Shown here: piece after piece, positions 1,117 to 22,417 of the stretch
Position numbering within the stretch: position 1 is the first letter of the stretch
How the letters are laid out: every line of letters starts with the position of its first letter
Source: an uncultured Thermofilaceae archaeon
GTDB taxonomy: Archaea > Thermoproteota > Thermoprotei > Thermofilales > Thermofilaceae
DNA: 32,000 nucleotides
Reading direction: 5' to 3'
Assembly (NCBI GenBank): GCA_964489665.1
Contig: CAZAZN010000003.1
Coordinates: forward strand, 28,192-60,191
Position numbers and translations under genes: made by a program
The notes under the pieces: model-generated
What the model was told of the DNA's origin: nothing
Databases searched by the model: none
The model's input: only the letters and a program-made list of their open reading frames with translations

Positions 1117-1995
1117 ATGAACATAGGCATACTCACCCGCAACCCCCGCGCGTGGGCTCCTAGGCAGCTGGAGAGGGCGATACGCGAAAGGGGGCATGAG
1201 GCGGTCTTCCTAAGCTATAGGTCGCTCGTGGCGCGAGTTGGCTACCGGCCTAGGCTCGAGTCTAGGGGGGTAAAGCTCGAGGAGGACTTGAGCGCGGTGA
1301 TAGTCAGGCCCATTGGCAGGTGCTCGCTGGATCAGGCGATATTTAGGATGGACGCCCTCCACAGGCTTGCTCGGCTGGGGGTGGTCGTCGTCAATAGCCC
1401 CTCGGCCATAGAGAGGTGTATAGACAAGTTCTACGCCCTCTCGCTGCTAGAGGAACACGGGATCCCGGTCCCCAGGACCTTGGTCGCTGAGAGTGCTAGG
1501 GAAGCTATGAGGGCGTTCTACGAGCTGGGCTGCGACGTGGTCGTAAAGCCCCTCTTCGGCTCTAGGGGGATAGGGCTGATGAGGGTCTCTGACCCCGAGA
1601 CCGCTAGGAGGGTGTTCACGGCTCTGAGCTTCGTGCACAAGGTGCTTTACGTCCAGGAGTTCATCCCGCACGGCAATAGGGATATCCGGGCGTTCGTGGT
1701 CGGCGGCGAGGTTGTAGCCTCGATGTACAGGGAGTCTAGCGGGTGGAGGACTAATATAGCTCAGGGGGCGAGGCCTAGGCCTCTTAAGCTCAGCGGAGAG
1801 CTCGAGGACTTAGCGGTTAAGGCCGCTAAGGTTGTGGGCTGTGAGGTAGCGGGCGTAGATATACTCGAGGGGCCTGAGGGGTACTACGTAATAGAGGTTA
1901 ATAGCCAGCCGGGGTGGAGGGGGCTGCAGTCGGTAACGAGGGTCGATATCGCTGGGCGCATAGTCGACTACGTGCTCTCGAGGGTTAAGAGGTAG
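1117..1995 (+). CDS. RimK-family ATP-grasp ligase, MptN/CofF-like (candidate H4MPT or F420 alpha-L-glutamate ligase)
   Basis: 292 aa with the ATP-grasp layout: VVKPLFGSRGIGL, YVQEFIP..NRDIRAFVVGGEVVASMYR, GVDILE...VIEVNSQPGW. The H4MPT gene context favours MptN-like over LysX-like, but this cannot be resolved by eye. Confidence 0.75.
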   Translation: MNIGILTRNPRAWAPRQLERAIRERGHEAVFLSYRSLVARVGYRPRLESRGVKLEEDLSAVIVRPIGRCSLDQAIFRMDALHRLARLGVVVVNSPSAIERCIDKFYALSLLEEHGIPVPRTLVAESAREAMRAFYELGCDVVVKPLFGSRGIGLMRVSDPETARRVFTALSFVHKVLYVQEFIPHGNRDIRAFVVGGEVVASMYRESSGWRTNIAQGARPRPLKLSGELEDLAVKAAKVVGCEVAGVDILEGPEGYYVIEVNSQPGWRGLQSVTRVDIAGRIVDYVLSRVKR

Positions 1996-2003
1996 AAGCT
2001 ACT

Positions 2004-3062
2004 CTAGGCCCTCTTAAGCACCTGGTCGAAGTAGTTCCCATGGCCGTAGCTTAACGTGATCTGGTGGAACACCTCCCCGTTCTTCAGCAGGACCTCCTCT
2101 AGGGTGCCGCGAACTAGCCCCACCTCACCCTCCCTTAGTTGCATCCTGAACTCCTCCACGTACGAGACGATCCTCCTAACGTCTACGCGGCCCCTAAAGC
2201 CCCTAAGCTCTAGGACCTTAACGCCGTAGACCGATGGCATGAAGAAGGACCTACTATCGTCGGTAACCTCAACGATGGCCTCAACGAACGCTAAGCGCCT
2301 AATCCTCGCGTACGTAGGGTACTCGTTGTTTATCTCATTCCACTTCATAACGGGCTCGAATTCCACCTTAATGCGCCTGTGCGGCGTGTTGAGCACTGCG
2401 TAGATGAGCTTCCTCCTCTGGTACTCGACGTACTCCTCCGGCGTGTAGTGCTTGAACCTCCAGTTCTTAAAGGAGCTGGGAGAGGCCGTGTCGAACTCGT
2501 TAACTAGCACGCCGCCCCCCTTGTACAGCTCCCGTAGCACCTCTAGGAGCTCCTTGAGCTCCCTCCTACCGTACACCACGAGGTCTATGTCGCTGTAGTC
2601 TTCGTGGTAGAAGTCGTGCATCAGCGACCCAAACACCCCGAAGTCTGAGGGCTTGAGCGACGACGCCTCCGAGATCAGGTCCATTAGCGACCGCAGCGCC
2701 TCGACTAGCTTATCGTGCCTATCTGACCGCAGCAGCTCCCTAAGCCGCTGGTCAGGTCTCCTCAGCTCGGCGATGTCGGAGCTCCTAATGCCGATAAGCC
2801 TCTTACCGAACACCTCGCTATATATCGTGTACTGGGGGTACTTCTCCATCACGAACTTAAGCCCCCCGTCGAAGTAGAACTTGTAGTACCTAAGCCCCCG
2901 CCCTTCCCTCAGGGCCCTACGCTCCCTGCTCACGTAGATCGTCTCCGGCGCGTACTCTACGTCGCAGAAGCAGGCGTCAGGAGGGTGGTCGTAGCCCATG
3001 ACCCTGAAGATTATCCCCTCCTTAGATACGGGGGCGTCCCTATCCCTGAACTTCACGCTCAC
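2004..3062 (-). CDS. Uncharacterised pol-beta-type nucleotidyltransferase with conserved N- and C-terminal domains (paralogue 1 of 4)
   Basis: 352 aa. The central GVFGS-x12-SDIDLVVYG is a minimal NTase hG[GS]...DxD motif. The N-terminal EGIIFRVMGYDHPP and a C-terminal DDSRSFFMPSVYGV...GEVGLVRGTLEEV block are shared with ORFs 5933-6946, 11379-12434 and 12435-13499. It lies 81 bp downstream of larE on the same strand. Confidence 0.8.
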   Translation of the reverse strand: MSVKFRDRDAPVSKEGIIFRVMGYDHPPDACFCDVEYAPETIYVSRERRALREGRGLRYYKFYFDGGLKFVMEKYPQYTIYSEVFGKRLIGIRSSDIAELRRPDQRLRELLRSDRHDKLVEALRSLMDLISEASSLKPSDFGVFGSLMHDFYHEDYSDIDLVVYGRRELKELLEVLRELYKGGGVLVNEFDTASPSSFKNWRFKHYTPEEYVEYQRRKLIYAVLNTPHRRIKVEFEPVMKWNEINNEYPTYARIRRLAFVEAIVEVTDDSRSFFMPSVYGVKVLELRGFRGRVDVRRIVSYVEEFRMQLREGEVGLVRGTLEEVLLKNGEVFHQITLSYGHGNYFDQVLKRA

Positions 3063-3143
3063 AGCGAGAGCTAGGCGTTCGGGCTTAAATGGGCTATCGC
3101 CCAGAAACGGCCTAGACCGCTCTCCGAGGACCTTAGAAGCGCC

Positions 3144-3977
3144 TTATAGCCTCTGCCCAAGCGCCTCGTCCATGCTCCCCTCCCGGTAGCCGTATAGGTC
3201 TAGTGCTACGAACTCGTAGCCCAGCTCCCTTAGCTTAGCATATAGCTCGTCGAGGAGCCTCTCATCGAAGAGCGCTCTCCTCTCGCTCCTCCCGACCTCT
3301 ATCCTCGCAACCCGGCCGTGATCCCTCACCCTAACTACCTTAACGCCGGTAAGCTCCCGCACCACATCCTCCGCTAGCTCTATCCTCCTTAGCCTCTCGA
3401 GCGTTATTCTCTCCCCGTACGGTATTCTAGTCGCTAGGCACGTAGTGGCGGGCCAGTTCCAGTTAGGTAGCCCCAGCTCCCTAGCCAGTTCCCTTATCTC
3501 CCTCTTAGTTAACCCAGCCTCCGCTAGGGGGCTCCTTACGCCAAGCTCCCTCACCGCCCTTAGCCCAGGCCTCCGCTTACCCAGGTCGTCGGCGTTAGTA
3601 GCCTCCATTACGGCAAACGAGCTTAAGTTCTCGCTAGCGTACTCTAGGATCCTGCCGAGCATCATCCTCTTACACAGGTAGCACCTATCCGGAGGGTTAC
3701 TCCATATCCTCTCGTCCGAGAACTCCAGCTTAAGGACGACGTGCCTAACGCCTATCTCCCGAGCCAGAGCCTTCGAGGCCTCGAGGTCGCGCCTAGCCAT
3801 GAACGGCAAGTCCACGGTTACGGCTAAGACCCTGCTACCGCCTAGTGCTCTCAGCGCCGCCGCCGTTAGGAACGTGCTATCCACCCCACCCGAGAAGGCG
3901 ATCACCGCTACCTCCTCCTCTAGGTTTCGTAGGGACGCAAGAAGGCTCCTGTACTTCTCGCTCAGAGATACACGCAT
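3144..3977 (-). CDS. larE: LarE, PP-loop ATP-dependent sulfur transferase of NPN cofactor biosynthesis (three-Cys type)
   Basis: 277 aa with PP-loop AFSGGVDST, a CxxC (RCYLCK), and the conserved Cys in TTCLATRIPYGE. Confidence 0.85.
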   Translation of the reverse strand: MRVSLSEKYRSLLASLRNLEEEVAVIAFSGGVDSTFLTAAALRALGGSRVLAVTVDLPFMARRDLEASKALAREIGVRHVVLKLEFSDERIWSNPPDRCYLCKRMMLGRILEYASENLSSFAVMEATNADDLGKRRPGLRAVRELGVRSPLAEAGLTKREIRELARELGLPNWNWPATTCLATRIPYGERITLERLRRIELAEDVVRELTGVKVVRVRDHGRVARIEVGRSERRALFDERLLDELYAKLRELGYEFVALDLYGYREGSMDEALGQRL

Positions 3978-4143
3978 AGCTTGTTCTAGACCCTTCCTGC
4001 CGATTTAAGGCTTCTACTACAAGCCCTAAGCCTCCTAGGCGTACGTCTAGAGCCTCACGCCTAGATTTGTTCATCTTTACTGATCGCAGCTGGGATAGCT
4101 ACCTTAATTTACGGACTGTTAGCGATTAGACTAGGGTCGGCTA

Positions 4144-4965
4144 ATGACCCCCAGCGTGGAGGGAGGCAGGAAGGTACTGGTTATCGACTGCAGCGTTGCG
4201 GGGATATCAGGGGACATGCTTCTAGGGGCGCTAGTTGACCTAGGCGCGAGCAAGGAGCGCATAGCTGGCCTAAGGGACGTCATCTTAAGGCACGTTGAAG
4301 GAGTTAAGGAGCTGGAGATAGAGGTAAGGGATGTCAGGCGCAGAGGGTTTAGGGCCAAGAAGGTTACGGTTAGAGCGGTTGAGGAGGGCGGGGAGAAGCA
4401 CGGCGACGAGGTAATAGGCGCGGTTTCGCGCGTCGTAGACGACCTGGGGCTACCCGATAAGGCTAGGGAAATCGCCCTAAGCGCGGTTAAGCTGCTGATA
4501 GAGGCCGAGGCCTTAGTGCATGGAGAGGAGGTAGAGGAGGTGCACCTCCACGAGACCGGCTCAGTCGACACGATAGTGGACATCGTCGGCTGCGTAGTGG
4601 CCTTAAGCGACCTCGGGCTCCTTGACGCCGAGGTTTACGCTACGCCCGTAGCCGTTGGAGGAGGTAGGATAAGGATAGCGCACGGGGTGTTGTCGAGCCC
4701 CGCGCCAGCCACCTTGGAGATCCTAAGGAGGAGCGGCGTTTACATATCGGGTGGGCCCATAGACGCGGAGCTTACGACGCCCACGGGAGCCGCCTTGCTC
4801 GCGAGCATCGTCAACAAGTCAACTCCCTTCTACCCACCTCTAAGGGTCGAGAAGATAGGGTATGGCGCCGGTGATAAGGACTTCAAGGAGTTCCCCAACG
4901 TTCTAAGGCTCGTGGTCGGCACGCGGTACGACGCCTTAGAGCTGTGGATGAAGGCCCGAGATTAA
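4144..4965 (+). CDS. larC: LarC N-terminal (DUF111, LarC1-like) domain protein with no C-terminal CTP-binding domain
   Basis: 273 aa with intact canonical motifs VIDCSVAGISGDMLLGALVDLGAS and VHLHETGSVDTIVDIVG. The ORF stops at 4965, and only 42 bp follow before the convergent larB, so no LarC2 part is encoded here. Confidence 0.8.
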   Translation: MTPSVEGGRKVLVIDCSVAGISGDMLLGALVDLGASKERIAGLRDVILRHVEGVKELEIEVRDVRRRGFRAKKVTVRAVEEGGEKHGDEVIGAVSRVVDDLGLPDKAREIALSAVKLLIEAEALVHGEEVEEVHLHETGSVDTIVDIVGCVVALSDLGLLDAEVYATPVAVGGGRIRIAHGVLSSPAPATLEILRRSGVYISGGPIDAELTTPTGAALLASIVNKSTPFYPPLRVEKIGYGAGDKDFKEFPNVLRLVVGTRYDALELWMKARD

Positions 4966-5007
4966 GCGTTAGAGCGCGAGAACTAGAGCTGAGAAGCTAG
5001 AAGATGG

Positions 5008-5835
5008 CTAACGCTTGGCTCTAAGCTTCTGCCTAACCACTCCAACCCTGCGCGCTATTAGCGCAGCTACCACGCCGGCGTTAACCCCGCTATCTATGTT
5101 GACTACCGCTAGGCCTAGAGGGCAAGCCTGAAGCATCGAGAGCAGGGCCGCCTGCCCCCCGCCGCCCGCCCCGTAGCCTATGGAGGTCGGCACGCCTATC
5201 ACGGGCACGTCTACGAGGGATGCGATGACAGAGGGCAACGCCCCCTCCATGCCGGCGACGGCTACTATCACGTCGACGTCGCTCTCCTTAAGCTTCCTGA
5301 TAGCCGCGAGAACCCTGTGGAACCCCGCTACCCCCACGTCGTAGACGGCTACCGTTCGGCAGCCCATCTCCTCCGCGATGAAGCGAGCTTCCTCGGCTAC
5401 CCTCACGTCGGCAGACCCGCCCGTCACTATGCCTACCGTGCAGGGGAGCTTTGGTCTCTCCTTAAAGCCCTTCACCCGCACGGCAGCTATCCTCCCAACC
5501 TCGTTGATTACGACCTCGTACTCAGAGCTCCTAGCAAGATCCTTCAGGGCGCTGATCTGCTCGTCGGTTAGCCTGGAGACTATGACCTCCCCCATTTCCG
5601 GCGTTACCGAGCGCACGAGCTTCATGAGGAGGTCTACGCTCTTACCCTCACCTAAGATTATCTCGGGAACGTCCCTCCTTAACGCTCTCCCTAAGTCGAA
5701 CCTCACGTACTCCTCTATCTGCTTAAGCGCGTGAAGCCTTATCATGCTCACGGCTTCGTCTACATCGACCTCTCCCCTCGCAACGGCTTCAAGTATACTC
5801 CTCAAATCTAGCATTTTTTCCTTCAACGATATCAC
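5008..5835 (-). CDS. larB: LarB, NaAD carboxylase/hydrolase of NPN cofactor biosynthesis
   Basis: 275 aa with a PurE-like C-terminal half: GIVTGGSADVRVAEEA, DVGVAGFHR, AVAGMEGALPSVIASLVDVPVIGVPTSIGYGAGGGG, VVNIDSG. A TATA-like GTATAAATTTCC (revcomp of about 5840-5851) sits too close to 5835, so the real start may be the in-frame ATG at 5814. Confidence 0.85.
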   Translation of the reverse strand: MISLKEKMLDLRSILEAVARGEVDVDEAVSMIRLHALKQIEEYVRFDLGRALRRDVPEIILGEGKSVDLLMKLVRSVTPEMGEVIVSRLTDEQISALKDLARSSEYEVVINEVGRIAAVRVKGFKERPKLPCTVGIVTGGSADVRVAEEARFIAEEMGCRTVAVYDVGVAGFHRVLAAIRKLKESDVDVIVAVAGMEGALPSVIASLVDVPVIGVPTSIGYGAGGGGQAALLSMLQACPLGLAVVNIDSGVNAGVVAALIARRVGVVRQKLRAKR

Positions 5836-5932
5836 CAGGAAATTTATACTCCCTACCTAACCTCAAGGCCCTCCTAAAATTCTTTGTCTCGACGAATTCA
5901 GGCGGCTAAGCGTTACGCTCGGGGGCCGTCTC

Positions 5933-6946
5933 CTACGTCCTAACCCCCCGGCTTAGGTTCACGATGTACTCGCGCTGCAAGCCAGATCCAACGAATATCC
6001 TGTAGTCCTCACCTCCCCTAAGCGCCGCCCTCTCCAACACCCCCTTAACGACTATCTCGTCGCCAGCTCTAGCTATCATCCTGTGCAGTCCGATCATCGA
6101 CACTACGCGGCTAACCTTAGCCGGGTTATCCAGCTCCCCTTCGAGGACCTCTATTACCTCAACCCCGTATACCGCCGGCCTAAACATGGACTCGCCATCG
6201 TCAATTACCTTGCACACGGCCTTAACGGGCAACACCGGGACGTAGGGGATGCTAGTTGAGATCTCGCTGAACGCGCGTACCGCGTTTACGTTAAACCTAA
6301 CGTCCCCGTACCTACCCCTATTCAGCCTCACTCTATCGAGCGGCGTATCCCTCGACAGGGATAGCCTCCCCTCCTCCTCAAGCAGCCTTAGGGCTTCGAG
6401 CACCTTAAGGTAGTTCCGAGCGCCGTACACGATGACGTCTATATCGCTGAACCGCCCGTGCATTCCAAGGCTAATGGATCCGCTTACGCCGAAGTTCTCG
6501 AGCGGGACCCCCGACCTCTCGGATAGCGCCAGCACGAGCTCTACAGCCTTATTCTCTAGCCAGTCCCTACTAGCCTTCCTCAGGAGCCTAGCTACCGACT
6601 CGTCGGGCCTGTACACCTCCTCTACCAGGTGCTCTGGGACGCTAACCAAGTACTTCCTCAGGCGCTTAGAGTAGTAGACGTACTCGGGAAAGTGGCTCCT
6701 CAGAGCCTCAACGACTACGCGGTAGGTCTCGTGCGAGAACAGCACTTTAGGCCTCACGAGCCTCCTCCCCTTAAAGCGCCAGGTTTGATCGAGCCACTCT
6801 AGGTCGAAGTAGCGAGCGTAGTCCTCGGGAATGTACTTAAGGTTGCATATCGCCCTGCCTGGATGGTGCTCGTACCCTACTACGTAGAATATGAAGCCGT
6901 GCTTAGTTACCAGCGCGTCGCAGTCCCTAAACCTCAAGCTCGACAC
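5933..6946 (-). CDS. Uncharacterised pol-beta-type nucleotidyltransferase family protein (paralogue 2 of 4)
   Basis: 337 aa with HGFIFYVVGYEHHP, GVSGSISLGMHGRFSDIDVIVYG, and DDGESMFRPAVYGVEV...GDEIVVKGVLE. It lies 97 bp upstream of larB on the same strand. Confidence 0.8.
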   Translation of the reverse strand: MSSLRFRDCDALVTKHGFIFYVVGYEHHPGRAICNLKYIPEDYARYFDLEWLDQTWRFKGRRLVRPKVLFSHETYRVVVEALRSHFPEYVYYSKRLRKYLVSVPEHLVEEVYRPDESVARLLRKASRDWLENKAVELVLALSERSGVPLENFGVSGSISLGMHGRFSDIDVIVYGARNYLKVLEALRLLEEEGRLSLSRDTPLDRVRLNRGRYGDVRFNVNAVRAFSEISTSIPYVPVLPVKAVCKVIDDGESMFRPAVYGVEVIEVLEGELDNPAKVSRVVSMIGLHRMIARAGDEIVVKGVLERAALRGGEDYRIFVGSGLQREYIVNLSRGVRT

Positions 6947-7088
6947 CGCCTAGCCTCGCGCTAACTATCCGGGGCTTTTAGTTAACGTTACCCTAGCTCG
7001 CTGGCATGCGGCAGCTTACCTAACCAAAGTAGGTCTGCCGTATTAGGGACACTAAATTTATATGCTTATCGGCGAAAACCTATTTCTG

Positions 7089-7997
7089 ATGTCCGAAGAA
7101 GGCTTCAAGAAGATAATGGTGTTCTTGTCCACCGACGTTCACCCCTCCCCCTTCGACGTGCTGTTCGCTTACGATACCGGCGTGGACGCCGTCGTGTACT
7201 ACGGCGGTGTAACCGCCGAGACCGCGGGCTCGCTTATACTAGATACCATGTTCCCTAGGGGGCCCGAGGGGCTGAAGTACACGGTAGTGTTCATAGGGGG
7301 GAAGAACTACGACGAGTGCCTTAAGATTGCGGAGGTCGCCAAGAAGACCTACTTCAAGCCCTTCGTGGCCTCGACCATAGTCGACCCCGCGGGCGCTTTC
7401 ACAACGTCATCGGCCGTAGTCGTCAAGGTGTCCTCCTGCCTAAAGGCTAAGGGCTTCGACCCCGCTAAGGCTAAGTACACGGTCCTAGGGGGAGCCGGGA
7501 GGGTCGGCCGCTGCATCGCCTACCTTCTCGCCAAGCTCGGCGCCACGGTCGTTATCGGCGACGTGCTCGTTGAGGGAGCTAAGGAGAGGGCTAGGGAGAT
7601 AAACGAGAAGGTTGGGGCGGAGAGGGCGATCGCGTTCGAGAAGGCGACCGATAAGCCCGAGAACGTGCTGGAGGCCTGTAAGGATTCGACGGTGGTCATC
7701 ACGGCGGGACCTCCCGCCAAGACCCTGCTACCGCTGGACGTCCTAACCAAGCTTGAGAGCTGCGTGCTGGTAGCGGACATTAACGCGACGCCGCCGTACG
7801 GCGTCGAGGGGATAAAGCCGACCTACGACTGCAAGGCCATGAAGAAGCTACCTAGGGTCACCGCCATCGGCGCACTCGCTATAGGCAGCTTTAGGAACAA
7901 GGTCCAGAGGGCCCTCATCAGGAAGGCGTTCGAGACCCCGGGAGCGTTCTTCGGGCTCGACGAGGCGTTTGAAGTAGCCCGTAGCCTAGTTAGCTAG
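7089..7997 (+). CDS. MtdA/MtdB-type NAD(P)-dependent methylene-tetrahydromethanopterin dehydrogenase
   Basis: The N-terminal STDVHPSPFDVLFAYDTGVDAVVYYGGVT, VVFIGGKNYDECLKIAEVAKKTYFKPF, IVDPAGAFTTSSA and the Rossmann VLGGAGRVGRCIAYLLAKLGATVV match my recollection of methylotroph MtdA. The track ORF starts at 7062, but TATA-like TAAATTTATA (7053-7062) overlaps that ATG. The in-frame ATG at 7089 fits a leaderless transcript better. Confidence 0.75.
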   Translation: MSEEGFKKIMVFLSTDVHPSPFDVLFAYDTGVDAVVYYGGVTAETAGSLILDTMFPRGPEGLKYTVVFIGGKNYDECLKIAEVAKKTYFKPFVASTIVDPAGAFTTSSAVVVKVSSCLKAKGFDPAKAKYTVLGGAGRVGRCIAYLLAKLGATVVIGDVLVEGAKERAREINEKVGAERAIAFEKATDKPENVLEACKDSTVVITAGPPAKTLLPLDVLTKLESCVLVADINATPPYGVEGIKPTYDCKAMKKLPRVTAIGALAIGSFRNKVQRALIRKAFETPGAFFGLDEAFEVARSLVS

Positions 7998-8010
7998 CTC
8001 CCGGCTCTAG

Positions 8011-8022
8011 ATTTTTCTCTTT
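8011..8022 (+). terminator. Oligo-T terminator-like tract after the mtd-like gene
   Basis: TTTTTCTCTTTT lies 14 nt after the stop codon at 7995-7997. Confidence 0.4.
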
Positions 8023-8085
8023 TCAACCTTTAAGTAGGGGAGCGGAAGCTATCTAAGTAGCCGGGCGCGTTGGTAGGCGCTTGGG

Positions 8086-9006
8086 ATGGGGAGGCGAGGG
8101 AGCGGCAGGAGGACGCGTAGGAGCGCTCGGGCAAGGTACTTAGCTAGGAGGGTTAGGACCAGCTACTGGAGGCCCGGGTGCAACTACCTCGAGGCCATAG
8201 TTAAGGCGCTTAGGAAGGTGAAGCTTAGGGACGGGGACATCGTGGTGGTCTCGGAGAAAGCTATCTCGGTAGCCGAGGGCAATATCGTGGATGAGAGCGG
8301 GATAAGGCCTAGCCTACTGGCGAGGCTAATAGCCAAGTACTGGATGAGGCTCGTATGGGGCTACCTACTCGGCGTCCTCAGCGGGCTGAGCAGGAGGACC
8401 CTCTACAACCTGCGAAACTACCCCTTAGAGCTAGGTGCTCGCCACAAGGAGCTAGCCCTTAGGCTCACGTCCCCCCTCCAAGCCCTCTCCTTCGGCTCGG
8501 AGGGGGGCATCGACGGATCTAACCTCCCGTACTCCTACGTAGCCCTCCCGCTTAGAGACCCCCAGGCGGTTGCTGAGAGGATAAGGAGCTATATTAGGGA
8601 GAGGCTTGGCAGGGACGTCGTAGTCGTCATCTCGGACTCCGATAGGTGCTACTCGTGGAGGAGCTTCCACATAACCCCAAGGCCGACGGCTGTTAAAGGC
8701 ATCAAGTCGGCTGGTGGCTTCTTAACCTACGTGATCTGCAACTTCCTTAAGCTAAGGTCCCATCCCACGCCCGTCGCTGTAGCGGGCGGAGACTTCAGCA
8801 TTGAGGAGCTTCTAACAGTAACGGCTATCGCGGAGAGGCTTAGGGGGCATGGCGCTGGGAGGGACGTGTGGGAGATGGCGAGGAGGTTCGGGACCTCCCT
8901 AGATGGCGTCACCTGGGAAATGCTGGAGAGCATCCCCCACTACCCGATAGTCGTTGTTAGGCGAATTCCGAGAAAAAGAGCGGAACGCAAAAAGCTAGGG
9001 GGTTAA
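8086..9006 (+). CDS. CofE-like (F420-0:gamma-glutamyl ligase family) protein
   Basis: 306 aa with LRDGDIVVVSEKAISVAEGN, SEGGIDGSNLP and VVVISDSDRCYSWR, corresponding to the CofE-family blocks DGD..VV.SK..SKAEGR, GIDASN and V.I.DT.GR. Confidence 0.65.
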   Translation: MGRRGSGRRTRRSARARYLARRVRTSYWRPGCNYLEAIVKALRKVKLRDGDIVVVSEKAISVAEGNIVDESGIRPSLLARLIAKYWMRLVWGYLLGVLSGLSRRTLYNLRNYPLELGARHKELALRLTSPLQALSFGSEGGIDGSNLPYSYVALPLRDPQAVAERIRSYIRERLGRDVVVVISDSDRCYSWRSFHITPRPTAVKGIKSAGGFLTYVICNFLKLRSHPTPVAVAGGDFSIEELLTVTAIAERLRGHGAGRDVWEMARRFGTSLDGVTWEMLESIPHYPIVVVRRIPRKRAERKKLGG

Positions 9007-9710
9007 GCCCCGGCCTCTATCCCGAGGACGCGCATCGCCTTAAGGAGGGATACGCCAACTAGCGACGCGATCGCCGTCATGAGTAGCCTCTCGGCCACCG
9101 AGATGGGGAGGACGGCCATGAACAGCGCGGGAAGCCCGGGGATGCTCTCAACCGGCATGAACAGCCCAGCGAACTGTATGAAGGCGAGATTCCCGTACAT
9201 GTGATCCGCCATTAAGCCGCAGTAGCTCACCAGCGGAACTAGGTACTCAGTCCTAGCCCTCTTAGGGAGCTTCCACAGGGCTAGCGCTAGGGCGAGCGCT
9301 ACGATGTGCGGCACCGGGTACAGCGGAGCGGCCCTACCTACCCACGTGGCGTACCAGCCCGCGACTAGAGCCCCAAGGATGCAGGGCGCGGCGGCCCGCC
9401 TATACGGGCTCCCTCCGCGGGAGCTCGCAAGCCCCGCTACTAGGCTCGATATCACGGGCGCTGGGAGGAAGAGGAGGCCTATCGGGGTCGGCGTGCCTGA
9501 GGGTAGCACGAGCGCTATAGAGGTGCCTACTAGGGCTGCTAGCGCCCCCTTCCAGGGCCCCAGCGCTATCCCGAATACCGGCGCGATCGAGGCTGCCAGG
9601 TTTATCCTCCCCTTACCCCCTATGATCGGGATGCCGGGGATCAGCGTTAAGACGGCGTACGTCGCTGCTAGCACCGAAATCATGGACACATCCTTTGCCC
9701 TAAGCTTCAT
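9003..9710 (-). CDS. Integral membrane protein, ECF-transporter S-component-like (cofactor or precursor uptake candidate)
   Basis: 235 aa with about 6 predicted helices. The N-terminus KDVSMISVLAATYAVLTLIPGIPIIGG...INLAASIAPVFGIALGPWKGALAALVG resembles substrate-capture components. A BRE/TATA lies 27 bp upstream (leaderless). Confidence 0.45.
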   Translation of the reverse strand: MKLRAKDVSMISVLAATYAVLTLIPGIPIIGGKGRINLAASIAPVFGIALGPWKGALAALVGTSIALVLPSGTPTPIGLLFLPAPVISSLVAGLASSRGGSPYRRAAAPCILGALVAGWYATWVGRAAPLYPVPHIVALALALALWKLPKRARTEYLVPLVSYCGLMADHMYGNLAFIQFAGLFMPVESIPGLPALFMAVLPISVAERLLMTAIASLVGVSLLKAMRVLGIEAGA

Positions 9711-9732
9711 GGCGTGCTATTAACATACATTG

Positions 9733-9749
9733 AATTATAAGCCTTTGCA
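9733..9749 (-). promoter_or_regulatory. BRE/TATA promoter of the S-component-like gene (leaderless)
   Basis: The minus strand reads TGCAAAGGC-TTATAATT, with the TATA centre 27 nt upstream of the ATG at 9710. Confidence 0.5.
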
Positions 9750-9885
9750 CAGAATGGTACCGCTATTACCTATCGGTGTACTCGGCTACACGCCCATTGC
9801 CGTTAACCTTAGGGCCGTTAACAGTATACTTCGATGAGAGAGCCTAGGGCATTACTTATTTGCCGAGTTATCATTCAATCCAGGG

Positions 9886-10386
9886 GTGCTTGTCGTGGAA
9901 AGATGTTACATACTCTACGTCGTCCCGTTGCCGAAAAAGAGGGAGGATAAGCGGAGGTTCCTACTCAAGGTCTTCGGCTCTAACGTGACCATGGACATAC
10001 TGGAGCTAACCTGCACTAAGGAGAGGGTTGCCCAGAAGGAGCTGATAAGGAAGCTGCCGTACTCGAATAAGACAATAATATCCTACCTTAACGAGCTCGT
10101 ATCCCTAGGGATCTTAAAGGAGTCGATGGAGAGGGTGAGGAGGGACGGTAGGCGGATCTGGATCAAGCAGTATACGCTAACTAGGGTGGGGAGGCTGATC
10201 GCGCTCCTAGTTAGCCCTCCCGAGAGGTTGAGGAGGGAGGAGATCGAGAAGCTGCTTAAGGATCTCCTAAGGCTCTACCTAAGGTTCATAGTGAAGCTGT
10301 GCTTGAAGCACGGGCTGGACGCGGGCATCGTCCTCAAGCTCGCTGAGGAGGAGGTGAAGAGGCTTAGCGGGGGCTCTAAGGCATAA
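9886..10386 (+). CDS. Winged-helix transcription regulator (archaeal wHTH)
   Basis: 166 aa. ILELTCTKERVAQKELIRKLPYSNKTIISYLNELVSLGILKE is a typical HTH plus wing. The start codon is uncertain (GTG at 9886). Its stop lies 1 nt before the CitG-like gene, so the two are probably co-transcribed. Confidence 0.6.
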   Translation: MLVVERCYILYVVPLPKKREDKRRFLLKVFGSNVTMDILELTCTKERVAQKELIRKLPYSNKTIISYLNELVSLGILKESMERVRRDGRRIWIKQYTLTRVGRLIALLVSPPERLRREEIEKLLKDLLRLYLRFIVKLCLKHGLDAGIVLKLAEEEVKRLSGGSKA

Positions 10387-10387
10387 G

Positions 10388-11362
10388 GTGAGCGGGATGT
10401 CGGCCGAAGGGTGGAGGAGGGCTAGCGCTAGGATAGCGCGGAGGGTGGCTAGGTGTGCTCAGCTAGCCATGCTCCTCGAAGTTAGCGCCTATCCTAAGCC
10501 CGGCAACGTGCACAGGCTGAGGGATTTCAGGGAGACTAGGTACGAGCACTTCCTAGTGTCCTCCTGCATAGCTGCCGACTACTTCCGCGCGGCCGCCATT
10601 AGGGGGCTAAAGGCAAGTGTCGGGCTACTCGACTTTAGCGAGATCGGCGTTGGGAGGCTAATCGAGGCCTGCATGAGGGAGGTCATTCGGGAGCAGCGAG
10701 GCGGCAACACCTGCCTAGGGACGGTCACGATGCTAATGCCCCTAAGCGCGGCTAGCGCGTTAACGATGCTCGAAGGCGGCGACATGTATGGCGACCTGAG
10801 GGCTAACCTCTCCCTCGTGCTAAGGTCTACGACGCCGCGGGACGCGGTAGCGTTCTACAACGCGATTAAGGTGGCTAAGCCTAACATCGGGAGGTCTAAG
10901 TGGCTTGACGCGTTCGACGAGTCGTCTAAGAGGGTTATCCTGGAGAGGGGCATTACGCTATACCAGATATTCGAGTACGCGTCTAAGTACGATACCGTAG
11001 CTAGGGAGTGGGTTACGGACTTCGAAGTAACATTTAAGCTAGGAGCCCCTTACATGCAGAAACTGCTAGATGAGGGGTATGATATAAACGCAGCCATCGT
11101 ACACACCTTCCTAAAGATACTGTCAGAGATACCGGATACTCTGATCGTTAAGAAGGCGGGCCTAGAGAAGGCGCTCGAGGTGTCGAGGATGGCGAGGGAG
11201 GTTCTCGAGGCTGGGGGCTTAAGGACTCAGGAGGGCAGGAGGCTCCTAGCCGATATGGACTTCAAGCTAAGGGAGGAGGACCACCTGCTTAACCCGGGAA
11301 CGACGGCTGATATCACGGCGGCTAGCATAATGCTAGTCCTGTTGAGGGGCATGAAGTTTTAG
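10388..11362 (+). CDS. CitG-family (triphosphoribosyl-dephospho-CoA synthase-like) protein
   Basis: 324 aa. The CitG/MdcB hallmark N-terminus ALLLEVSAYPKPGNVHR appears here as AMLLEVSAYPKPGNVHRLRDF, followed by GGNTCLGTVTMLMPL and LNPGTTADITAAS. Alternative start ATG at 10397. Confidence 0.75.
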   Translation: MSGMSAEGWRRASARIARRVARCAQLAMLLEVSAYPKPGNVHRLRDFRETRYEHFLVSSCIAADYFRAAAIRGLKASVGLLDFSEIGVGRLIEACMREVIREQRGGNTCLGTVTMLMPLSAASALTMLEGGDMYGDLRANLSLVLRSTTPRDAVAFYNAIKVAKPNIGRSKWLDAFDESSKRVILERGITLYQIFEYASKYDTVAREWVTDFEVTFKLGAPYMQKLLDEGYDINAAIVHTFLKILSEIPDTLIVKKAGLEKALEVSRMAREVLEAGGLRTQEGRRLLADMDFKLREEDHLLNPGTTADITAASIMLVLLRGMKF

Positions 11363-11378
11363 GCTAGCGGCGCTTGCC

Positions 11379-12434
11379 TCAACGGGGCAGAAGGGGGACT
11401 ACGTAGCTCTGTGGCACCTCTAGGGAGCCCACCACGACCCTGTAGTACCTGTGGCCGCGCTTGTCAACTACCTCCTCCAGCTTACCCCTGAAGCGCACCC
11501 TCTCGCCCTCGTAGAGGACGCCGGAGAATATCCCCTCGAAGGAGACTATCTCGAGTATCTCGCCCACGTCCTCGCCGTGCTTAACGGCTACGTCCTCGAC
11601 CCTGTACAGGGCTGGCAGGAACAGCGACTCCGAGCTATCGGATATCGTGGCGCGCCCCTCTACCTCGCCTAGAGACCTGTACACCCTGTCGCCGTACCTC
11701 TCCCTTACCTCGCAATCCTTCCTAACGGCATGGATTGAGAAGTACCTCCCCCTGTAAACGCCGTAGTTCCATCTCCTCCTAGCTATCTCGAGCAGCTCCC
11801 TAGGGCTGATGCCAGCGTCCCTCGCGTGCTCCACGCTCCACCTCCTCAGGTAGTCCTCGCTTAGCGGCTTTACGGGCGATCGGGGGTCGAGCAGCGCCCC
11901 TCTTACGAACTCCTCGACCCTCCGCATGTTCTCCGCGCCGTACACCACTAGGTCTATGTCCGAGAGGGCTGGATTGTGTATCCCAAGGAGGGTTGAGCCG
12001 GTAACTCCCATATCCCTCGGGTCAACGCCAGCCTCCCGCGCTATCCAGCTAGCGAGCGACGCAACGTCCCTCTCCAGCGGGTCCCCGCCGCCTGAGGCTA
12101 GGATCTCCCTTAGCCTGTCCTCGGGCGCGTAATGCCTCTTAACGTACTCTCTAGGGACCATGGACATCCTTATCCCCCTTATGGGGCAGTAGTGCAGGTA
12201 GTGGGGGTACCGCTCTTCGAGAAGCTTGAAGCTCTCCCCCACTTGGACGACGTGGTACCTCTTGATGATCCTCTCGTACTTAACGCTCCCCCTCCTCCAT
12301 ATCCTTCCCGAGGCGGATGGAACGTACTTCAGGTAGGCCGTGTACTTCCCGGGCGGGTGCAGGTACCCTACGACGCAGAAGAATAGCCCCTCAACGGTCT
12401 CCAGGTAGTCCTTATCCTTCACGAGCCTACCCAC
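11379..12434 (-). CDS. Uncharacterised pol-beta-type nucleotidyltransferase family protein (paralogue 3 of 4)
   Basis: 351 aa with EGLFFCVVGYLHPP, GVTGSTLLGIHNPALSDIDLVVYG, and SDSSESLFLPALYRVE...GERVRFRGKLEEV. Its GTG start directly abuts the stop of paralogue 4 (12435), indicating translational coupling. Confidence 0.8.
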   Translation of the reverse strand: MGRLVKDKDYLETVEGLFFCVVGYLHPPGKYTAYLKYVPSASGRIWRRGSVKYERIIKRYHVVQVGESFKLLEERYPHYLHYCPIRGIRMSMVPREYVKRHYAPEDRLREILASGGGDPLERDVASLASWIAREAGVDPRDMGVTGSTLLGIHNPALSDIDLVVYGAENMRRVEEFVRGALLDPRSPVKPLSEDYLRRWSVEHARDAGISPRELLEIARRRWNYGVYRGRYFSIHAVRKDCEVRERYGDRVYRSLGEVEGRATISDSSESLFLPALYRVEDVAVKHGEDVGEILEIVSFEGIFSGVLYEGERVRFRGKLEEVVDKRGHRYYRVVVGSLEVPQSYVVPLLPR

Positions 12435-13499
12435 TCACTCCACCCGCTCCAAGGGGTACATAACGTCGTCGGCGTACTCCCCTAGCAACAGCCTGCAGAA
12501 GCGTCGACCCTTCTCCTCCACAACCTCGACTACGCCTCTCGCCAGCACCCTCTCGCCCTTAACGGCCTGCTCGCAGAACCTACCCCTAAACGAGGCGACC
12601 TCGAGCAGCGGGTAGGGAATGGAGCCCTCTAAGACCTCTACATCATCTACGAGGTACCTGCAGGGGGTGAATATCGAGTCCCCATCGTCAACTACCCTCG
12701 CAACTACCGTCGCTCGCCCAGCCCTGCGGTAAACCCTCTCCCCGTACCTCTCCCCGAACTCCCCAGGCCGCTTAACTAGCCTGATATAGAAGTCCCTACC
12801 CTTAAAGACCCCCTCCAGCACCTTCCTCCTCTCAACCCTCAGGAACTCCCTCAACGGCATGCGCGTATCTCGAGACCTAAACTCGTAGAGCTTGAGCAGC
12901 TCCTCCTCCCTATAGGCCCTCAGCTCGCCCTGGTCCGTCAAGACATCCTTAAGGTAGGAGTACAGTAGCCTACCCTCCCTCTCCCCGTAGACCACCAGGT
13001 CTATGTCGGAGCCCTCGGTGTGTAGCCCCACTAGGAGCGAGCCGCTAACTCCCATCGACTCCAGCTCAACTCCGGACGAGGATAGGCGCTCGGCTAGCCC
13101 TCGCGCAAGCTCCTCGAGCCCATCCCTAGCCCCCCGCTCTACGATCTCCCTTAGCCTAGAGGTTGGGCTGTACACGCGCCTTATCCTAGACAGGGGCACG
13201 GCTTGAAGCCAGCGGTTGAAGAACTTGTCGAAGTACATGTACTCGGGGAACCTGCTCCTGATAACCTCCTCCCTCCTCAGGAGGCTGTAGACCTTAGCGT
13301 AGCGCGTCCCGTCAGGCCCCACCCTGCTACCGCGCGGGTCCGGCACGTACCTAACGTAGGCTACGACCCTATCCGGCGGGTGGAGAAGGCCCTTAACGTC
13401 GAAAATCAGGCGGTCAACGGTCTCCAGGAAGTACCCCTCAATAGGCCTCTCGCCTAGGGTCTCGGCGGCTGATCTTTCCCCCAAGCCGATGGCACCCAT
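12435..13499 (-). CDS. Uncharacterised pol-beta-type nucleotidyltransferase family protein (paralogue 4 of 4)
   Basis: 354 aa with DRLIFDVKGLLHPP, GVSGSLLVGLHTEGSDIDLVVYG, and DDGDSIFTPCRYLVD...GERVLARGVVEVV. Its ATG lies 2 nt after the ftr stop. Confidence 0.8.
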   Translation of the reverse strand: MGAIGLGERSAAETLGERPIEGYFLETVDRLIFDVKGLLHPPDRVVAYVRYVPDPRGSRVGPDGTRYAKVYSLLRREEVIRSRFPEYMYFDKFFNRWLQAVPLSRIRRVYSPTSRLREIVERGARDGLEELARGLAERLSSSGVELESMGVSGSLLVGLHTEGSDIDLVVYGEREGRLLYSYLKDVLTDQGELRAYREEELLKLYEFRSRDTRMPLREFLRVERRKVLEGVFKGRDFYIRLVKRPGEFGERYGERVYRRAGRATVVARVVDDGDSIFTPCRYLVDDVEVLEGSIPYPLLEVASFRGRFCEQAVKGERVLARGVVEVVEEKGRRFCRLLLGEYADDVMYPLERVE

Positions 13500-13501
13500 C
13501 C

Positions 13502-14430
13502 CTACTCGGGCGGGGCGAGCTTCTCCCTGGCCTTCTCGACGGCTTCTCGAAGCCCTATCTTGTAGGGGCCAAGCTTCCCCCCGAAGTTCGCGGCGGATAT
13601 CTTCCTAACCCCCTTAACCCTAGCCGCTGCGAGGGCCGCTACCCCCATGGCGAGCGCTACCCGGTCGGCGCTTAAGCCGTTGATGACTATCTCGTACACG
13701 CACCTTACGCCCTCGGGGACGAGGGAGCCGGGCACCTTATCCCTGAGCGTGGGGCAGAGGAGGTGGTTAGTGTAGCTCTAAGCTTAGGGTACTTGAGCGA
13801 GCCGACCTTAGACCCGGACCTGACGATCCCGCCGGGAAAGGGCGTTATAACCCCCCTGACGTGCCTCCTAATGGCCCTGACGGCCTCTTCAGCCGCCCTA
13901 AGGCCGGCCTCCAAGCTCTCCGAGAGTATTATCACGTTCCCGCCAGCAACCCCCTTCACCACCCCAACGGTGTCCTCTACCAGGAACTCCCCCTCCATCA
14001 CGGGGATATGCCACATGGTCCGCCCGTAGTCCTCTCGCTTGTACTCGAAGCCGTCCCCAAACTTAGCGAGCGACGAGCCCAGCCGCATCCTCCTCTTCGC
14101 CTTAGGTAAAGCGTCGAACAGCGCGGTTGTGGGGCACGTGAGCACGCACTGCCCCACCCTACTCAGGAGCTGCAGCTTAAGCTCGGGTATCGTGCGGTGG
14201 TAGAGCTGGACTATAACCCCCGGCCTGCCGTCCGGGGTAGCGTTGCTGGAGACAAAGCACTCGACGCCGCCCTCCGCGGGGCACATTATTATCGAGGTCG
14301 CGAACCCGACCGCCTCAAGGGCTGCCGTTAGCGCCCACCTCCTGCTAGCGGCCGTGATCAGCAGCCTACACGCGTACATGGGAAAAGCCTCCGCGAACGT
14401 ATCCTCGACCTCAACCCTGTTTACGATCAT
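13502..14430 (-). pseudogene. ftr: Formylmethanofuran:H4MPT N-formyltransferase (Ftr) interrupted by a 1-nt frameshift
   Basis: ORF 13705-14430 carries the Ftr N-terminal and central part: VEDTFAEAF, LITAAS, IMCPAEGG, TPDGRPG, GQCVLTCPT, IPVMEGEF, GVAGGN, PFPGGIVRSGSKVGS. ORF 13502-13735, in another frame, carries the Ftr C-terminus: PEGVRCVYEIVINGL...ISAANFGGKLGPYKI. The frames switch at about 13772-13776. Confidence 0.85.
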
Positions 14431-14477
14431 GTAGGTCCCCCTAAACGATCTTAGGGGCCCCTATAAGTGCCTTGCAA

Positions 14478-14515
14478 GAAAAGAGGGAACAGAAGGGAAA
14501 AACTAGGAGAAAAAG
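14478..14515 (-). terminator. Oligo-T archaeal terminator-like tract downstream of the 613-aa gene
   Basis: On the minus strand, T5 (revcomp of 14510-14514), T5 (14498-14502) and T4 (14479-14482) start 6 nt after the TAA stop at 14522-14524. Confidence 0.45.
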
Positions 14516-14521
14516 GGATTT

Positions 14522-16363: not shown

Positions 16364-16400
16364 GATACCCCCCGGTGCCGCTATTTATCGGTTGCTCGAC

Positions 16401-16417
16401 AAATATAAACATTTGCA
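16401..16417 (-). promoter_or_regulatory. BRE/TATA promoter of the 613-aa gene
   Basis: The minus strand reads TGCAAAT-GTTTATATTT, with the TATA centre about 42 nt upstream of the ATG at 16363. GGGGGG (revcomp of 16368-16373) serves as an SD-like element in a short leader. Confidence 0.5.
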
Positions 16418-19794: not shown

Positions 19795-19798
19795 GAGC

Positions 19799-21493: not shown

Positions 21494-21497
21494 GAAC

Positions 21498-22358
21498 GTG
21501 GGGGTGCGCGTCTTAATAGTCTCGCCGAGAAGGAGGTTTAGGGTCCCAGTGGAGGCGGCGTGCCTATCGCCTGACAGGATCTCCGAGCTTACGCTAGAGG
21601 AGATCGAGCGCCTCAAGGCGTACGAGGGAAATAGGCTGGTTAAGCTAGGCGAGATCTTCCGCCTAAGAGAGGAAGGCGACGCCAGCTCCGACTCCGTTAG
21701 GCTAGTGCTGGAGGGGGACTTCGGGAAGGTATGGAGAATAGGCGAGGGTATGAAGTCGGGAGAGATAGTCGTGAAGGGCGACGTGGGCCACTTCTTAGGG
21801 TTTAGGATGGCGGGCGGCTCTATTCAAGTGCACGGCAACGCTGGCTCCTGGGTAGGCGCCGAGATGAGGGGAGGCGTAATCGAGGTTCACGGCAACGCTG
21901 GCGACCACGTCGGCGCAGTGCTTAGGGGCGAGAGGCCGTCAAAGGGGATGTGCGGCGGTACGATAGTAGTGCACGGCGACGTTGGAGCGGAGGCGGGCGC
22001 CGGGATGAGGAAGGGTGCCATAATAGTCAACGGCAACTGCGGGTACCTCCCAGGCGTGAACATGAGCGGGGGCAGCATACTGGTGAGGGGGAGCTGTAGG
22101 GGCAAGGCTGGAGCTAGGATGAGAGGAGGTAAGGTGGTCATATGCGGCCATGCCGGGGAGGTGCTGCCGACGTTTTACCTCGACGACGTCGTGGAGTCGG
22201 TTAAGGTTAAGGGGGAGAGGATCGAGGGCCCGTTCTACCTGTTCGTAGGCGACGTGCTCGGCGACGTAGGGTGTCTGGGCAGGCTGTACGTCTCGGTTAA
22301 GGGCAACAAGCACCTCAAGGCTCTAGCGGAGAAGCTACTAGGGTCGCGCTTTGGCTAA
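21498..22358 (+). CDS. fwdC: Formylmethanofuran dehydrogenase subunit C
   Basis: Reiterated glycine-rich beta-helix repeats: G.VG...G..M.GG.I.VHGNAG, repeated 6-7 times. The track ORF (from 21447) overlaps fwdA. In-frame GTG at 21498 or 21504, just after the fwdA stop at 21493, is the more likely start. Confidence 0.85.
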   Translation: MGVRVLIVSPRRRFRVPVEAACLSPDRISELTLEEIERLKAYEGNRLVKLGEIFRLREEGDASSDSVRLVLEGDFGKVWRIGEGMKSGEIVVKGDVGHFLGFRMAGGSIQVHGNAGSWVGAEMRGGVIEVHGNAGDHVGAVLRGERPSKGMCGGTIVVHGDVGAEAGAGMRKGAIIVNGNCGYLPGVNMSGGSILVRGSCRGKAGARMRGGKVVICGHAGEVLPTFYLDDVVESVKVKGERIEGPFYLFVGDVLGDVGCLGRLYVSVKGNKHLKALAEKLLGSRFG

Positions 22359-22417
22359 CCTTATTTGGCTCGCCGAGCCGCGAGAAAGCGAGCTTGCGCG
22401 AGCAGGGGCGGTAGGGG

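Follow-up and report, generated by a model that had tools for sequence, protein, structure and literature searches.

Four nucleotidyltransferase-like genes in a one-carbon gene island

The stretch of DNA analyzed here (the window) comprises 32,000 nucleotides (nt) of contig CAZAZN010000003.1 from an uncultured Thermofilaceae archaeon, and carries four paralogous genes, NT1 to NT4, whose products bear the signature of nucleotidyltransferases (NTases) of the polymerase β (pol-β) class. The four genes are embedded in an island of genes for one-carbon (C1) metabolism and cofactor synthesis (Table 1). The island begins with an MptN-like RimK ligase, NT1, LarE, an N-terminal fragment of LarC, LarB, NT2, an MtdA-like dehydrogenase, and a CofE-like ligase, continues with an ECF-S-component-like membrane protein (ECF-S-like), an Lrs14-like protein, a CitG-like enzyme, NT3, NT4, ftr, and a protein of 613 residues, and ends with full-length LarC, FwdD/B, FwdA, FwdC, and Mch. 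LarE is separated from NT1 by 81 nt and NT2 from LarB by 97 nt, while NT4 and NT3 have no nucleotides between them and the ftr stop codon lies 2 nt from the NT4 start codon. A first-pass annotation, made from the letters of the window alone, gave the last two spacings correctly, but the 2-nt gap applies to the 3′ fragment alone, since ftr is frameshifted.

Table 1 Positions of the NT genes, their catalytic signatures, and other features in the window.
Feature	Position	Strand	Description
NT1	2004..3062	(-)	352 residues; downstream of larE
NT1 catalytic signature	2568..2639	(-)	GVFGS, then SDIDLVVYG
NT2	5933..6946	(-)	337 residues; upstream of larB
NT2 catalytic signature	6422..6490	(-)	GVSGS, then SDIDVIVYG
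NT3	11379..12434	(-)	351 residues; start codon abuts NT4 stop codon
NT3 catalytic signature	11937..12008	(-)	GVTGS, then SDIDLVVYG
NT4	12435..13499	(-)	354 residues; most widespread of the four subfamilies
NT4 catalytic signature	12984..13052	(-)	GVSGS (residues 150-154), then SDIDLVVYG (residues 164-172)
RimK-family ATP-grasp ligase	1117..1995	(+)	Convergent with NT1; best match MptN (tetrahydromethanopterin:alpha-L-glutamate ligase)
lar block between NT2 and NT1	3144..5835	mixed	
LarE	3144-3977	(-)	TIGR00268, 278 bits (cut-off 150)
LarC N-terminal fragment	4144-4965	(+)	PF01969 Ni_insertion, positions 1-235 of 375
LarB	5008-5835	(-)	NF033503, 226 bits (cut-off 175)
MtdA-like methylene-tetrahydromethanopterin dehydrogenase	7062..7997	(+)	PF09176 Mpt_N, E 8e-22
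CofE-like protein (F420-0:gamma-glutamyl ligase family)	8086..9006	(+)	PF01996, E 1e-22
ECF-S-component-like membrane protein	9003..9710	(-)	PF07155, E 9e-9; folT-family, E 4e-4
Lrs14-like winged-helix protein	9886..10386	(+)	NCBIfam NF040939, E 2e-4; 1 nt before CitG-like gene
CitG-like ATP-dependent triphosphoribosyl transferase	10388..11362	(+)	PF01874, E 9e-78; convergent with NT3, 16-nt gap
ftr (formylmethanofuran:tetrahydromethanopterin formyltransferase)	13502..14430	(-)	Frameshifted near 13770-13790
ftr 3′ fragment	13502-13735	(-)	Stops 2 nt before NT4 start
613-residue protein	14522-16363	(-)	
LarC, full-length	16606-17844	(-)	
C1 module (FwdD/B fusion, FwdA, FwdC-like, Mch)	18058..23383	(+)	Flanks NT clusters in other genomes too
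FwdD/B fusion	18058-19794	(+)	578 residues; FwdD-like part (Molydop_binding) N-terminal to FwdB-like part (Molybdopterin)

The first-pass annotation had described the four open reading frames as sharing one three-part architecture, and pairwise BLASTP bears this out: the proteins, all encoded on the minus strand, are homologous over nearly their full length (E = 4e-23 to 2e-56, 29-37% identity), and 40 columns of their four-way alignment are invariant. The central block, GV[SFT]GS-x10/11-SDID[LV][VI]VYG, is the pol-β NTase signature that had been recognized in minimal form, and is present in all four proteins, which score 26.8, 21.4, 22.2, and 28.2 bits against the Pfam family PF01909 (NTP_transf_2), slightly above the gathering cut-off of 21 bits. 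The N-terminal block conserves F33, V35, G37, H40, P41, and P42, and the C-terminal block conserves DDxxSxFxPxxY followed by G322-x2-E325 (NT4 numbering is used throughout). An AlphaFold model of NT4, calculated from 33 sequences (mean pLDDT 93, pTM 0.90), consists of three parts: a β-rich N-terminal domain (residues ~20-110), an NTase core with a helical insert (residues ~112-250), and a C-terminal barrel (residues ~255-352). The barrel, which the annotation had suspected of being OB-like, is an OB fold in the model and resembles the OB folds of SSB and RPA proteins (Foldseek probability 0.96-0.98). The core weakly matches the palm of poly(A) polymerase, and the N-terminal domain is weakly Sm-like, although this match is non-significant (probability 0.57, E 0.4). 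The proteins are basic, with subfamily median isoelectric points (pI) of 8.2-9.0.

As the annotation had supposed, the family does not map to any characterized enzyme. The Pfam scan returned the generic PF01909 alone, with no model for the flanking domains, and the NCBIfam scan likewise returned nothing relevant and no flanking-domain model. A profile search of PDB sequences found nothing beyond chance similarity to designed helical proteins and a marginal match to a minimal NTase, and Foldseek found no whole-protein match in the PDB to the three-domain architecture of NT4. No description of the family was found in the literature on methanopterin biosynthesis or on COG1665. The NT family has no characterized member, and its widespread three-domain NTase architecture has no solved or characterized relative. 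Within a known enzyme superfamily, the family forms a variant that is new in architecture and function, with predicted NTase activity. It shares the signature hG[GS]-x9-13-DxD with MNT-type proteins, kanamycin NTase, and the poly(A) polymerase palm, but does not have the PAP-associated or CCA head and neck domains. MNT-HEPN toxin-antitoxin systems were rejected as an assignment: these have NTases of ~100-160 residues with a HEPN partner, whereas the NT proteins have 337-354 residues, three domains, and no HEPN neighbor. A genuine MNT-HEPN pair does occur near the NT cluster of one related genome (L090), and is distinct from the NT genes. CBASS CD-NTases and other defense NTases were also rejected, with no significant PADLOC match (best E 0.006, over a 30-residue stretch) and a match to CdnC in the PDB of E 1.9.

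Four orthologous groups and their conserved neighbors

A profile search for the family across 1.84 billion cluster representatives, from clusters at 50% identity, yielded 1,855 representatives at E ≤ 1e-3 and 671 at E ≤ 1e-30. NT4 gave 1,746 matches, with a typical orthologue ~50% identical, and orthologues at about this level of identity occur in more than 500 species genomes. Scanning one genome per species produced at least 529 matching stretches, of which the best 80 were taken as loci (designated by L numbers). These 80 come from Bathyarchaeia, Thermoproteota, several Asgard lineages, Hadarchaeota, and a few metagenome-assembled genomes (MAGs) that are labeled bacterial. Together with the window they contain 171 family genes, 165 of them full-length, and the full-length genes fall into four clean clusters, each of which includes one paralogue from the window. 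Identity is 46-59% inside the clusters and 25-31% across them. Recent local duplication is therefore rejected, because every copy in the window belongs to its own orthologous group. The annotation's view of NT1 to NT4 as an old expansion agrees with these groups, which identify the genes as ancient, maintained paralogues, one member each of four orthologous groups. Its impression that four copies are special to this locus does not survive, as the NT1 to NT4 groups cluster together in many archaea.

Among the 165 full-length members, G153, S154, S164, D165, and D167 are 100% conserved in each subfamily, and G150, Y171-G172, P279, Y282, G322, and E325 are kept at or near 100% in all four clusters. 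Because these signature residues are retained, all four groups appear to be catalytically competent. Other positions distinguish the subfamilies. Position 152 is serine in NT4, threonine in NT3, histidine in NT2, and phenylalanine in NT1. In the candidate third-carboxylate strand (positions 238 and 240), E-x-E is found only in NT1, while NT4 has Y/F-x-R, NT3 has S-x-H, and NT2 has M-x-N; the conserved E325 of the OB domain could substitute for the third catalytic carboxylate. NT1 and NT4 share R59 and K69, and NT2 and NT3 share W59 and R69. At position 336 in the OB domain, NT3 and NT4 share arginine and NT1 and NT2 share glutamine, and position 50 in the N-terminal domain is likewise subfamily-specific. 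This cross-pairing of residues would be compatible with A/B-type partners or with the order of duplication. The genes themselves also occur in pairs on one strand, with NT2 followed by NT1 in 23 loci, usually overlapping, and NT4 followed by NT3 in 13 loci. The pairing is not fixed, since NT3 is followed by NT1 in L091.

Neighboring genes were clustered and counted within 6 kb of the NT genes at 81 places, the 80 species loci and the window. The most conserved enzymatic neighbor is a CitG-like gene, found at 44 of the 81 places, followed by the ECF-S-like membrane protein (41/81) and by Fwd, Ftr, or Mch (34/81). Lrs14-like winged-helix genes neighbor the NT genes in 30 loci and MobB in 25, and the FwdB and FwdA clusters are represented in 21 and 16 loci, respectively. 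Less frequent are H4MPT-biosynthesis genes (7/81), where H4MPT is tetrahydromethanopterin, RimK- or CofE-like ligases (5/81), and Lar genes (4/81). Immediately upstream of NT4 on the same strand, the gene is ECF-S-like in 34 loci, CitG in 10, and MptA in four. The ECF-S-like gene often overlaps NT4 (e.g. L028 5193-6014, L056, L062), and in L091 a full set of ECF transporter components S, T, and A (13969-18659) lies beside NT2, NT3, and NT1.

The most telling gene order is seen in four loci from Thermoproteota, Baldrarchaeum, an unclassified archaeon, and Jordarchaeia (L004, L025, L047, L078), where MptG, DUF1464, DmrX, a DHPS-like protein, MptA, NT4, and NT3 are encoded co-directionally in this order. 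Four of these are assigned to H4MPT biosynthesis by NCBIfam models: the beta-RFAP synthase MptG (395 bits, cut-off 328), the dihydromethanopterin reductase DmrX (302 bits, cut-off 251), the MJ0301-type DHPS-like protein (378 bits, cut-off 257), and the GTP cyclohydrolase MptA (308 bits, cut-off 220). MptA and NT4 overlap by as much as 20 nt or are separated by as much as 44 nt. A partial H4MPT set occurs in one Bathyarchaeia locus (L079), with MptA on the opposite strand. DUF1464, an ASKHA/butyrate-kinase-like protein that sits between MptG and DmrX (L047 1613-2692, plus strand; also L004, L025, and L078), is a further candidate for one of the missing H4MPT steps. A protein that resembles methanogenesis marker 11 and bears a TiaS TCKD domain (L047 10745-11896, minus strand; also L004 and L078) and CooT-like genes recur a few kilobases downstream of NT4 and NT3 in these loci of non-methanogenic Asgard archaea and Thermoproteota.

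Other gene orders link the family to C1 metabolism. In many Bathyarchaeia, CitG, FwdD, FwdB, and FwdA are divergent from ECF-S-like and NT4, followed by NT1, NT2, a helix-turn-helix (HTH) gene, and MobB. L053 and L064 have Ftr-Mch-RimK-CitG-NT4; L092 has FwdD-FwdB-FwdA-Ftr-FwdC-RimK on one strand, then an NT2-type gene; and in L093 NT3 lies beside CODH/ACS genes. RimK adjoins NT or CitG genes in L053, L064, L055, L092, and L093, and a CofE-like gene adjoins NT genes also in L001, L055, and L090. The last of these, the nearest relative of the window that was found (67-69% identity for NT3 and NT4), keeps the order NT4-NT3-CitG-HTH-ECFS-CofE-...-Mtd-...-NT2, with the MtdA-like gene syntenic at 75% identity.

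The first-pass annotation had interpreted the NT genes as parts of cofactor and C1 operons and had allowed that they might turn out to be housekeeping enzymes with no conserved linkage. No characterized housekeeping homologue was found, and the NT genes are linked to C1 and cofactor genes in other genomes as well; the association with lar genes, which the annotation also stressed, is not conserved, being seen at four of 81 places and not next to NT2 in L090. CitG-like genes, which the annotation listed merely as an item to check, are among the dominant partners of the family, along with ECF-S-like, H4MPT-biosynthesis, and Fwd/Ftr genes. Taken together, these partners suggest that the cofactor concerned is H4MPT and not the nickel-pincer nucleotide (NPN).

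Several contigs labeled as bacterial (L050, L053, L058, L060, L061, L064, and L069; Anaerolineales, Acidiferrales, Acidoferrum, Krumholzibacteriaceae, and Deltaproteobacteria) carry archaeal-type clusters of NT, CitG, and Fwd genes. In L060 the order of NT, CitG, and ECF-S genes is the same as in Bathyarchaeia loci, which have Vps4/Cdv genes in their wider flanks. Some of the bacterial-labeled contigs may accordingly be mis-binned, while those from Anaerolineales possibly represent real transfer of a whole C1 module.

A candidate route to the tetrahydromethanopterin side chain

Methanogenesis, the anaerobic oxidation of methane, and the Wood-Ljungdahl pathway of archaea all use H4MPT as their C1 carrier, and metabolic reconstructions assume that Bathyarchaeia and Asgard archaea can make this cofactor. 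The cofactor has an alpha-linked ribofuranosyl 5-phosphate that is esterified to 2-hydroxyglutarate. To our knowledge, the genes for attaching the alpha-ribose 5-phosphate and the 2-hydroxyglutarate have stayed unassigned since the cell-extract work of the 1990s. Similar chemistry is known from other prosthetic groups: CitG and MdcB convert ATP and an acceptor hydroxyl to an alpha-linked 5-triphosphoribosyl adduct and adenine, after which CitX and MdcG couple the alpha-phosphate to the hydroxyl of a serine with release of pyrophosphate (PPi). MdcG is recognized as a pol-β-class NTase. The dephospho-H4MPT of methylotrophs lacks the phosphate and the hydroxyglutarate, and we know of no such NTase among the "archaeal-like" genes of these bacteria, in which the CitG-like orf7 is reportedly needed for the H4MPT-linked pathway.

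Because many genomes place the NT genes beside CitG-like and H4MPT C1 genes, they are good candidates for the missing steps of H4MPT side-chain synthesis. We tentatively propose, by analogy and with the substrate taken from gene context, that the NT proteins and the CitG-like enzyme may assemble the side chain of H4MPT or of a lineage-specific derivative. In the first step, the CitG-like enzyme would transfer a 5-triphosphoribosyl group from ATP to the terminal ribitol hydroxyl of a pterin-arylamine intermediate, with adenine lost and the configuration inverted to give an alpha-glycosidic bond. In the second step, an NT enzyme would use the triphosphate as an analogue of a nucleoside triphosphate and join its alpha-phosphate to an acceptor hydroxyl, that of (S)-2-hydroxyglutarate in canonical H4MPT, with release of PPi. 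This logic would be that of CitG/CitX and MdcB/MdcG, with a small-molecule acceptor in place of the acyl-carrier protein. The recurrent pairs NT4-NT3 and NT2-NT1 could form hetero-oligomers or catalyze successive transfers, and the ECF-S-like membrane protein might, at a guess, supply a precursor by uptake or salvage. The methanopterin gene island of methanotrophs has mch, a glutamate ligase gene, and a CitG-like gene adjacent to each other (PMC11533326, PMC3615186), an arrangement mirrored by Mch-RimK-CitG-NT4 in L053 and L064.

The likeness to MdcG and CitX lies in gene arrangement and in proposed chemistry. In both cases a gene for a CitG-family triphosphoribosyl synthase is paired with a transferase gene: mdcG overlaps the CitG-family gene mdcB in a Comamonadaceae plasmid, and citX overlaps citG. 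The signature of MdcG, FGS-x13-SDLDL, is the same minimal signature as the GxxGS-x10/11-SDIDL of the NT proteins, and the proposed reaction would likewise have a hydroxyl attack the alpha-phosphate of a 5-triphosphoribosyl group and release PPi. In contrast to the NT proteins, with ~340-350 residues and additional N-terminal and OB domains, MdcG and CitX have 183-237 residues, and their gene clusters carry an acyl-carrier-protein acceptor (CitD or MdcC) of a kind not found near the NT genes. The NT proteins also differ in having four paralogues, and their CitG-like partner is far under the CitG/MdcB equivalog cut-offs (the window protein, which is 26% identical to E. coli CitG over its full length and has the motifs PKPG and PG(T/S)AD, scores 71 bits vs a cut-off of 280). 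Membership of the NT proteins in the MdcG or CitX families was rejected, as hhalign gave a probability of 1.9% for MdcG and 0.6% for CitX and neither family appeared among Pfam hits at E ≤ 1. A second parallel is with CofC/CofD in F420 synthesis and CobY/CobS in cobamide synthesis, which work through a nucleotide-activated intermediate and link a polyol or ribosyl unit to a hydroxy compound by a phosphodiester in the cofactor side chain, and a position beside CofE-like and RimK-like tail ligases is a further point of likeness. The fold differs, with a MobA-like Rossmann NTase and a CofD-type transferase that have no detected sequence relation to the NT proteins, and activation is by GTP rather than by the CitG-type triphosphate proposed here.

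Several observations weigh against the proposed role in H4MPT side-chain assembly. A single phosphodiester step does not explain four catalytically intact paralogues; possible reasons for their number are that they form hetero-oligomers, transfer successively to different acceptors, or build a side chain that is more elaborate. Methanogens make H4MPT, but no cultured methanogen is among the named matches (the best 80-150 listed), which are from TACK, Asgard, Bathyarchaeia, Hadarchaeota, or bacterial-labeled MAGs. Because of this, and because there is no curated model for the flanking domains, the NT family may be absent from classical methanogens, and such absence may make it a lineage-specific or alternative route. 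The sample of loci is dominated by Bathyarchaeia, so that the neighbor counts are of non-independent events, although the linkage is nonetheless seen in several gene orders and several phyla. At 25 of the 81 places there is no cofactor or C1 neighbor within 6 kb. As noted above, there is no family-level similarity to MdcG or CitX. Finally, methylotroph orf5, orfY, and orf17 proved to be methylofuran genes, with orf5 encoding the glutamate ligase MyfB, and the RimK-type neighbors in methylotrophs act on methylofuran and not on H4MPT (PMC8141765). The gene context in such islands can therefore mislead.

That last observation favors an alternative, which we consider rather unlikely, in which the NT proteins act on another cofactor of the C1 module. 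They could take part in the maturation or salvage of the W/Mo pterin dinucleotide of Fwd, by nucleotidylating a pterin phosphate in the manner of MobA, or in making a side chain of methanofuran or F420 type, with the ECF-S-like protein importing a precursor. The one-strand arrangement of CitG with FwdD, FwdB, and FwdA in Bathyarchaeia, MobB beside the cluster in its 25 loci, the CofE-like and RimK-like ligases, and the full ECF transporter set that adjoins the NT genes in L091 all agree with this alternative. However, the tightest operonic link outside Bathyarchaeia is with MptG, DmrX, the DHPS-like protein, and MptA, which are specific to H4MPT, and L090 encodes a separate MobA-like protein (NTP_transf_3). 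Methanofuran and molybdopterin dinucleotides, moreover, have no alpha-ribosyl unit of the CitG type.

It is also improbable that the NT proteins are RNA or tRNA NTases for tailing, repair, or modification that bind nucleic acid through the OB fold and the barrel-like N-terminal domain, with the C1 linkage being inherited synteny without shared function. The OB fold, which is most similar to those of SSB and RPA, the weak similarity of the core to the poly(A) polymerase palm, the weakly Sm-like N-terminal domain, and the basic pI would equally suit a nucleic-acid substrate, and the 25 places without a cofactor neighbor fit as well. Yet no RNA-processing gene, tRNA, or Rfam element recurs near the NT genes, as judged from the neighbor clusters and scans of the window, and the CitG-like and ECF-S-like genes are coupled to NT4 in several phyla and in varied gene orders. 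OB folds also bind ligands other than nucleic acids, and the Sm-like match lacks significance.

We regard as very unlikely a third possibility, that the NT proteins are holo-protein synthases like CitX and MdcG, which would covalently attach a CitG-made phosphoribosyl group to Fwd or Ftr proteins, with the four paralogues serving four acceptor sites or proteins. A CitG-family gene accompanied by a pol-β-signature protein does match mdcB/mdcG and citG/citX, the CitG-like gene of Bathyarchaeia is co-directional with fwdDBA as citG is with the citrate lyase genes, and methylofuran is a tightly bound carrier in the bacterial Fhc complex. No small acyl-carrier-like gene recurs among the neighbor clusters, however, where the recurrent small genes are glutaredoxin-like or CooT-like; NT4 and NT3 in Asgard archaea and Thermoproteota are in operons for H4MPT biosynthesis and not for enzyme subunits; and no covalent prosthetic group is known for Fwd or Ftr.

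The four intact, maintained paralogues hint that the cofactor of these uncultured archaea may differ from the textbook structure. The module of CitG-like and NTase genes within H4MPT and Fwd/Ftr operons provides concrete, clonable candidates and a defined, proposed two-step chemistry. A more specific version, which we hold to be doubtful, is that the NT, CitG-like, and ECF-S-like proteins would constitute an undescribed module of TACK, Asgard, and Bathyarchaeia lineages that assembles, or salvages and rebuilds, the ribose-phosphate side chain of H4MPT or a derivative of it, with two hetero-oligomeric NTase pairs each making a different phosphodiester from a CitG-made triphosphoribosyl intermediate. 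If this version holds, genes could be assigned to long-missing late steps of methanopterin synthesis, and these lineages would be predicted to have a new cofactor structure.

Lar genes and other features of the window

The annotation had connected the NT genes to larB, larC, and larE as well as to C1 genes, and its overall interpretation stands in part: the link to C1 cofactors is supported, but lar as a specific partner is not. It is most improbable that the NT proteins act with LarB, LarC, and LarE in NPN maturation, for example by re-nucleotidylating or attaching NPN, since although NPN is a mononucleotide and NT partners are separated by lar genes in the window (NT2, LarB ... LarE, NT1) and in L064 (NT4, LarE, LarB, LarC, NT3; related arrangement in L053), lar genes occur at no more than four of the 81 places, no lar gene follows NT2 in L090 before the contig end, and LarC, once with LarB, consistently adjoins the 613-residue family in Methanothrix, Methanomicrobiaceae, and Thorarchaeota without an NT gene nearby.

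The 613-residue protein has no Pfam, NCBIfam, or PDB sequence match. It has 578 matches, and is 57-79% identical to hypothetical proteins from Methanothrix, Methanoculleus, Methanomicrobiales, Methanocorpusculum, Archaeoglobus, and Thorarchaeota. A LarC-like nickel-insertion gene comes directly after it on the same strand in Methanothrix, Methanomicrobiaceae, and Thorarchaeota (L085-L089), with LarB also following in Thorarchaeota. The protein is a candidate for a new client or partner of the nickel-pincer cofactor machinery. The truncated LarC of the window is a second copy, on the strand opposite larE and larB, in addition to the full-length gene.

Rfam and tRNA scans of the window found nothing, and therefore no riboswitch points to a ligand. 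The RimK-family ligase matches NF040720 with E 4e-82 and 276 bits, below the cut-off of 350 bits, and the Lrs14-like protein is a candidate local regulator. FwdD and FwdB, fused in the window, are separate genes in the Bathyarchaeia loci. In ftr, FTR and the first half of FTR_C are in one reading frame and the conserved C terminus is in another. The frameshift recurs base for base in an independent ENA metagenome assembly (L082 1-441). An error in a single assembly is unlikely because the independent assembly has the identical sequence, and the frameshift could represent a pseudogene, a shared sequencing artefact, or recoding.

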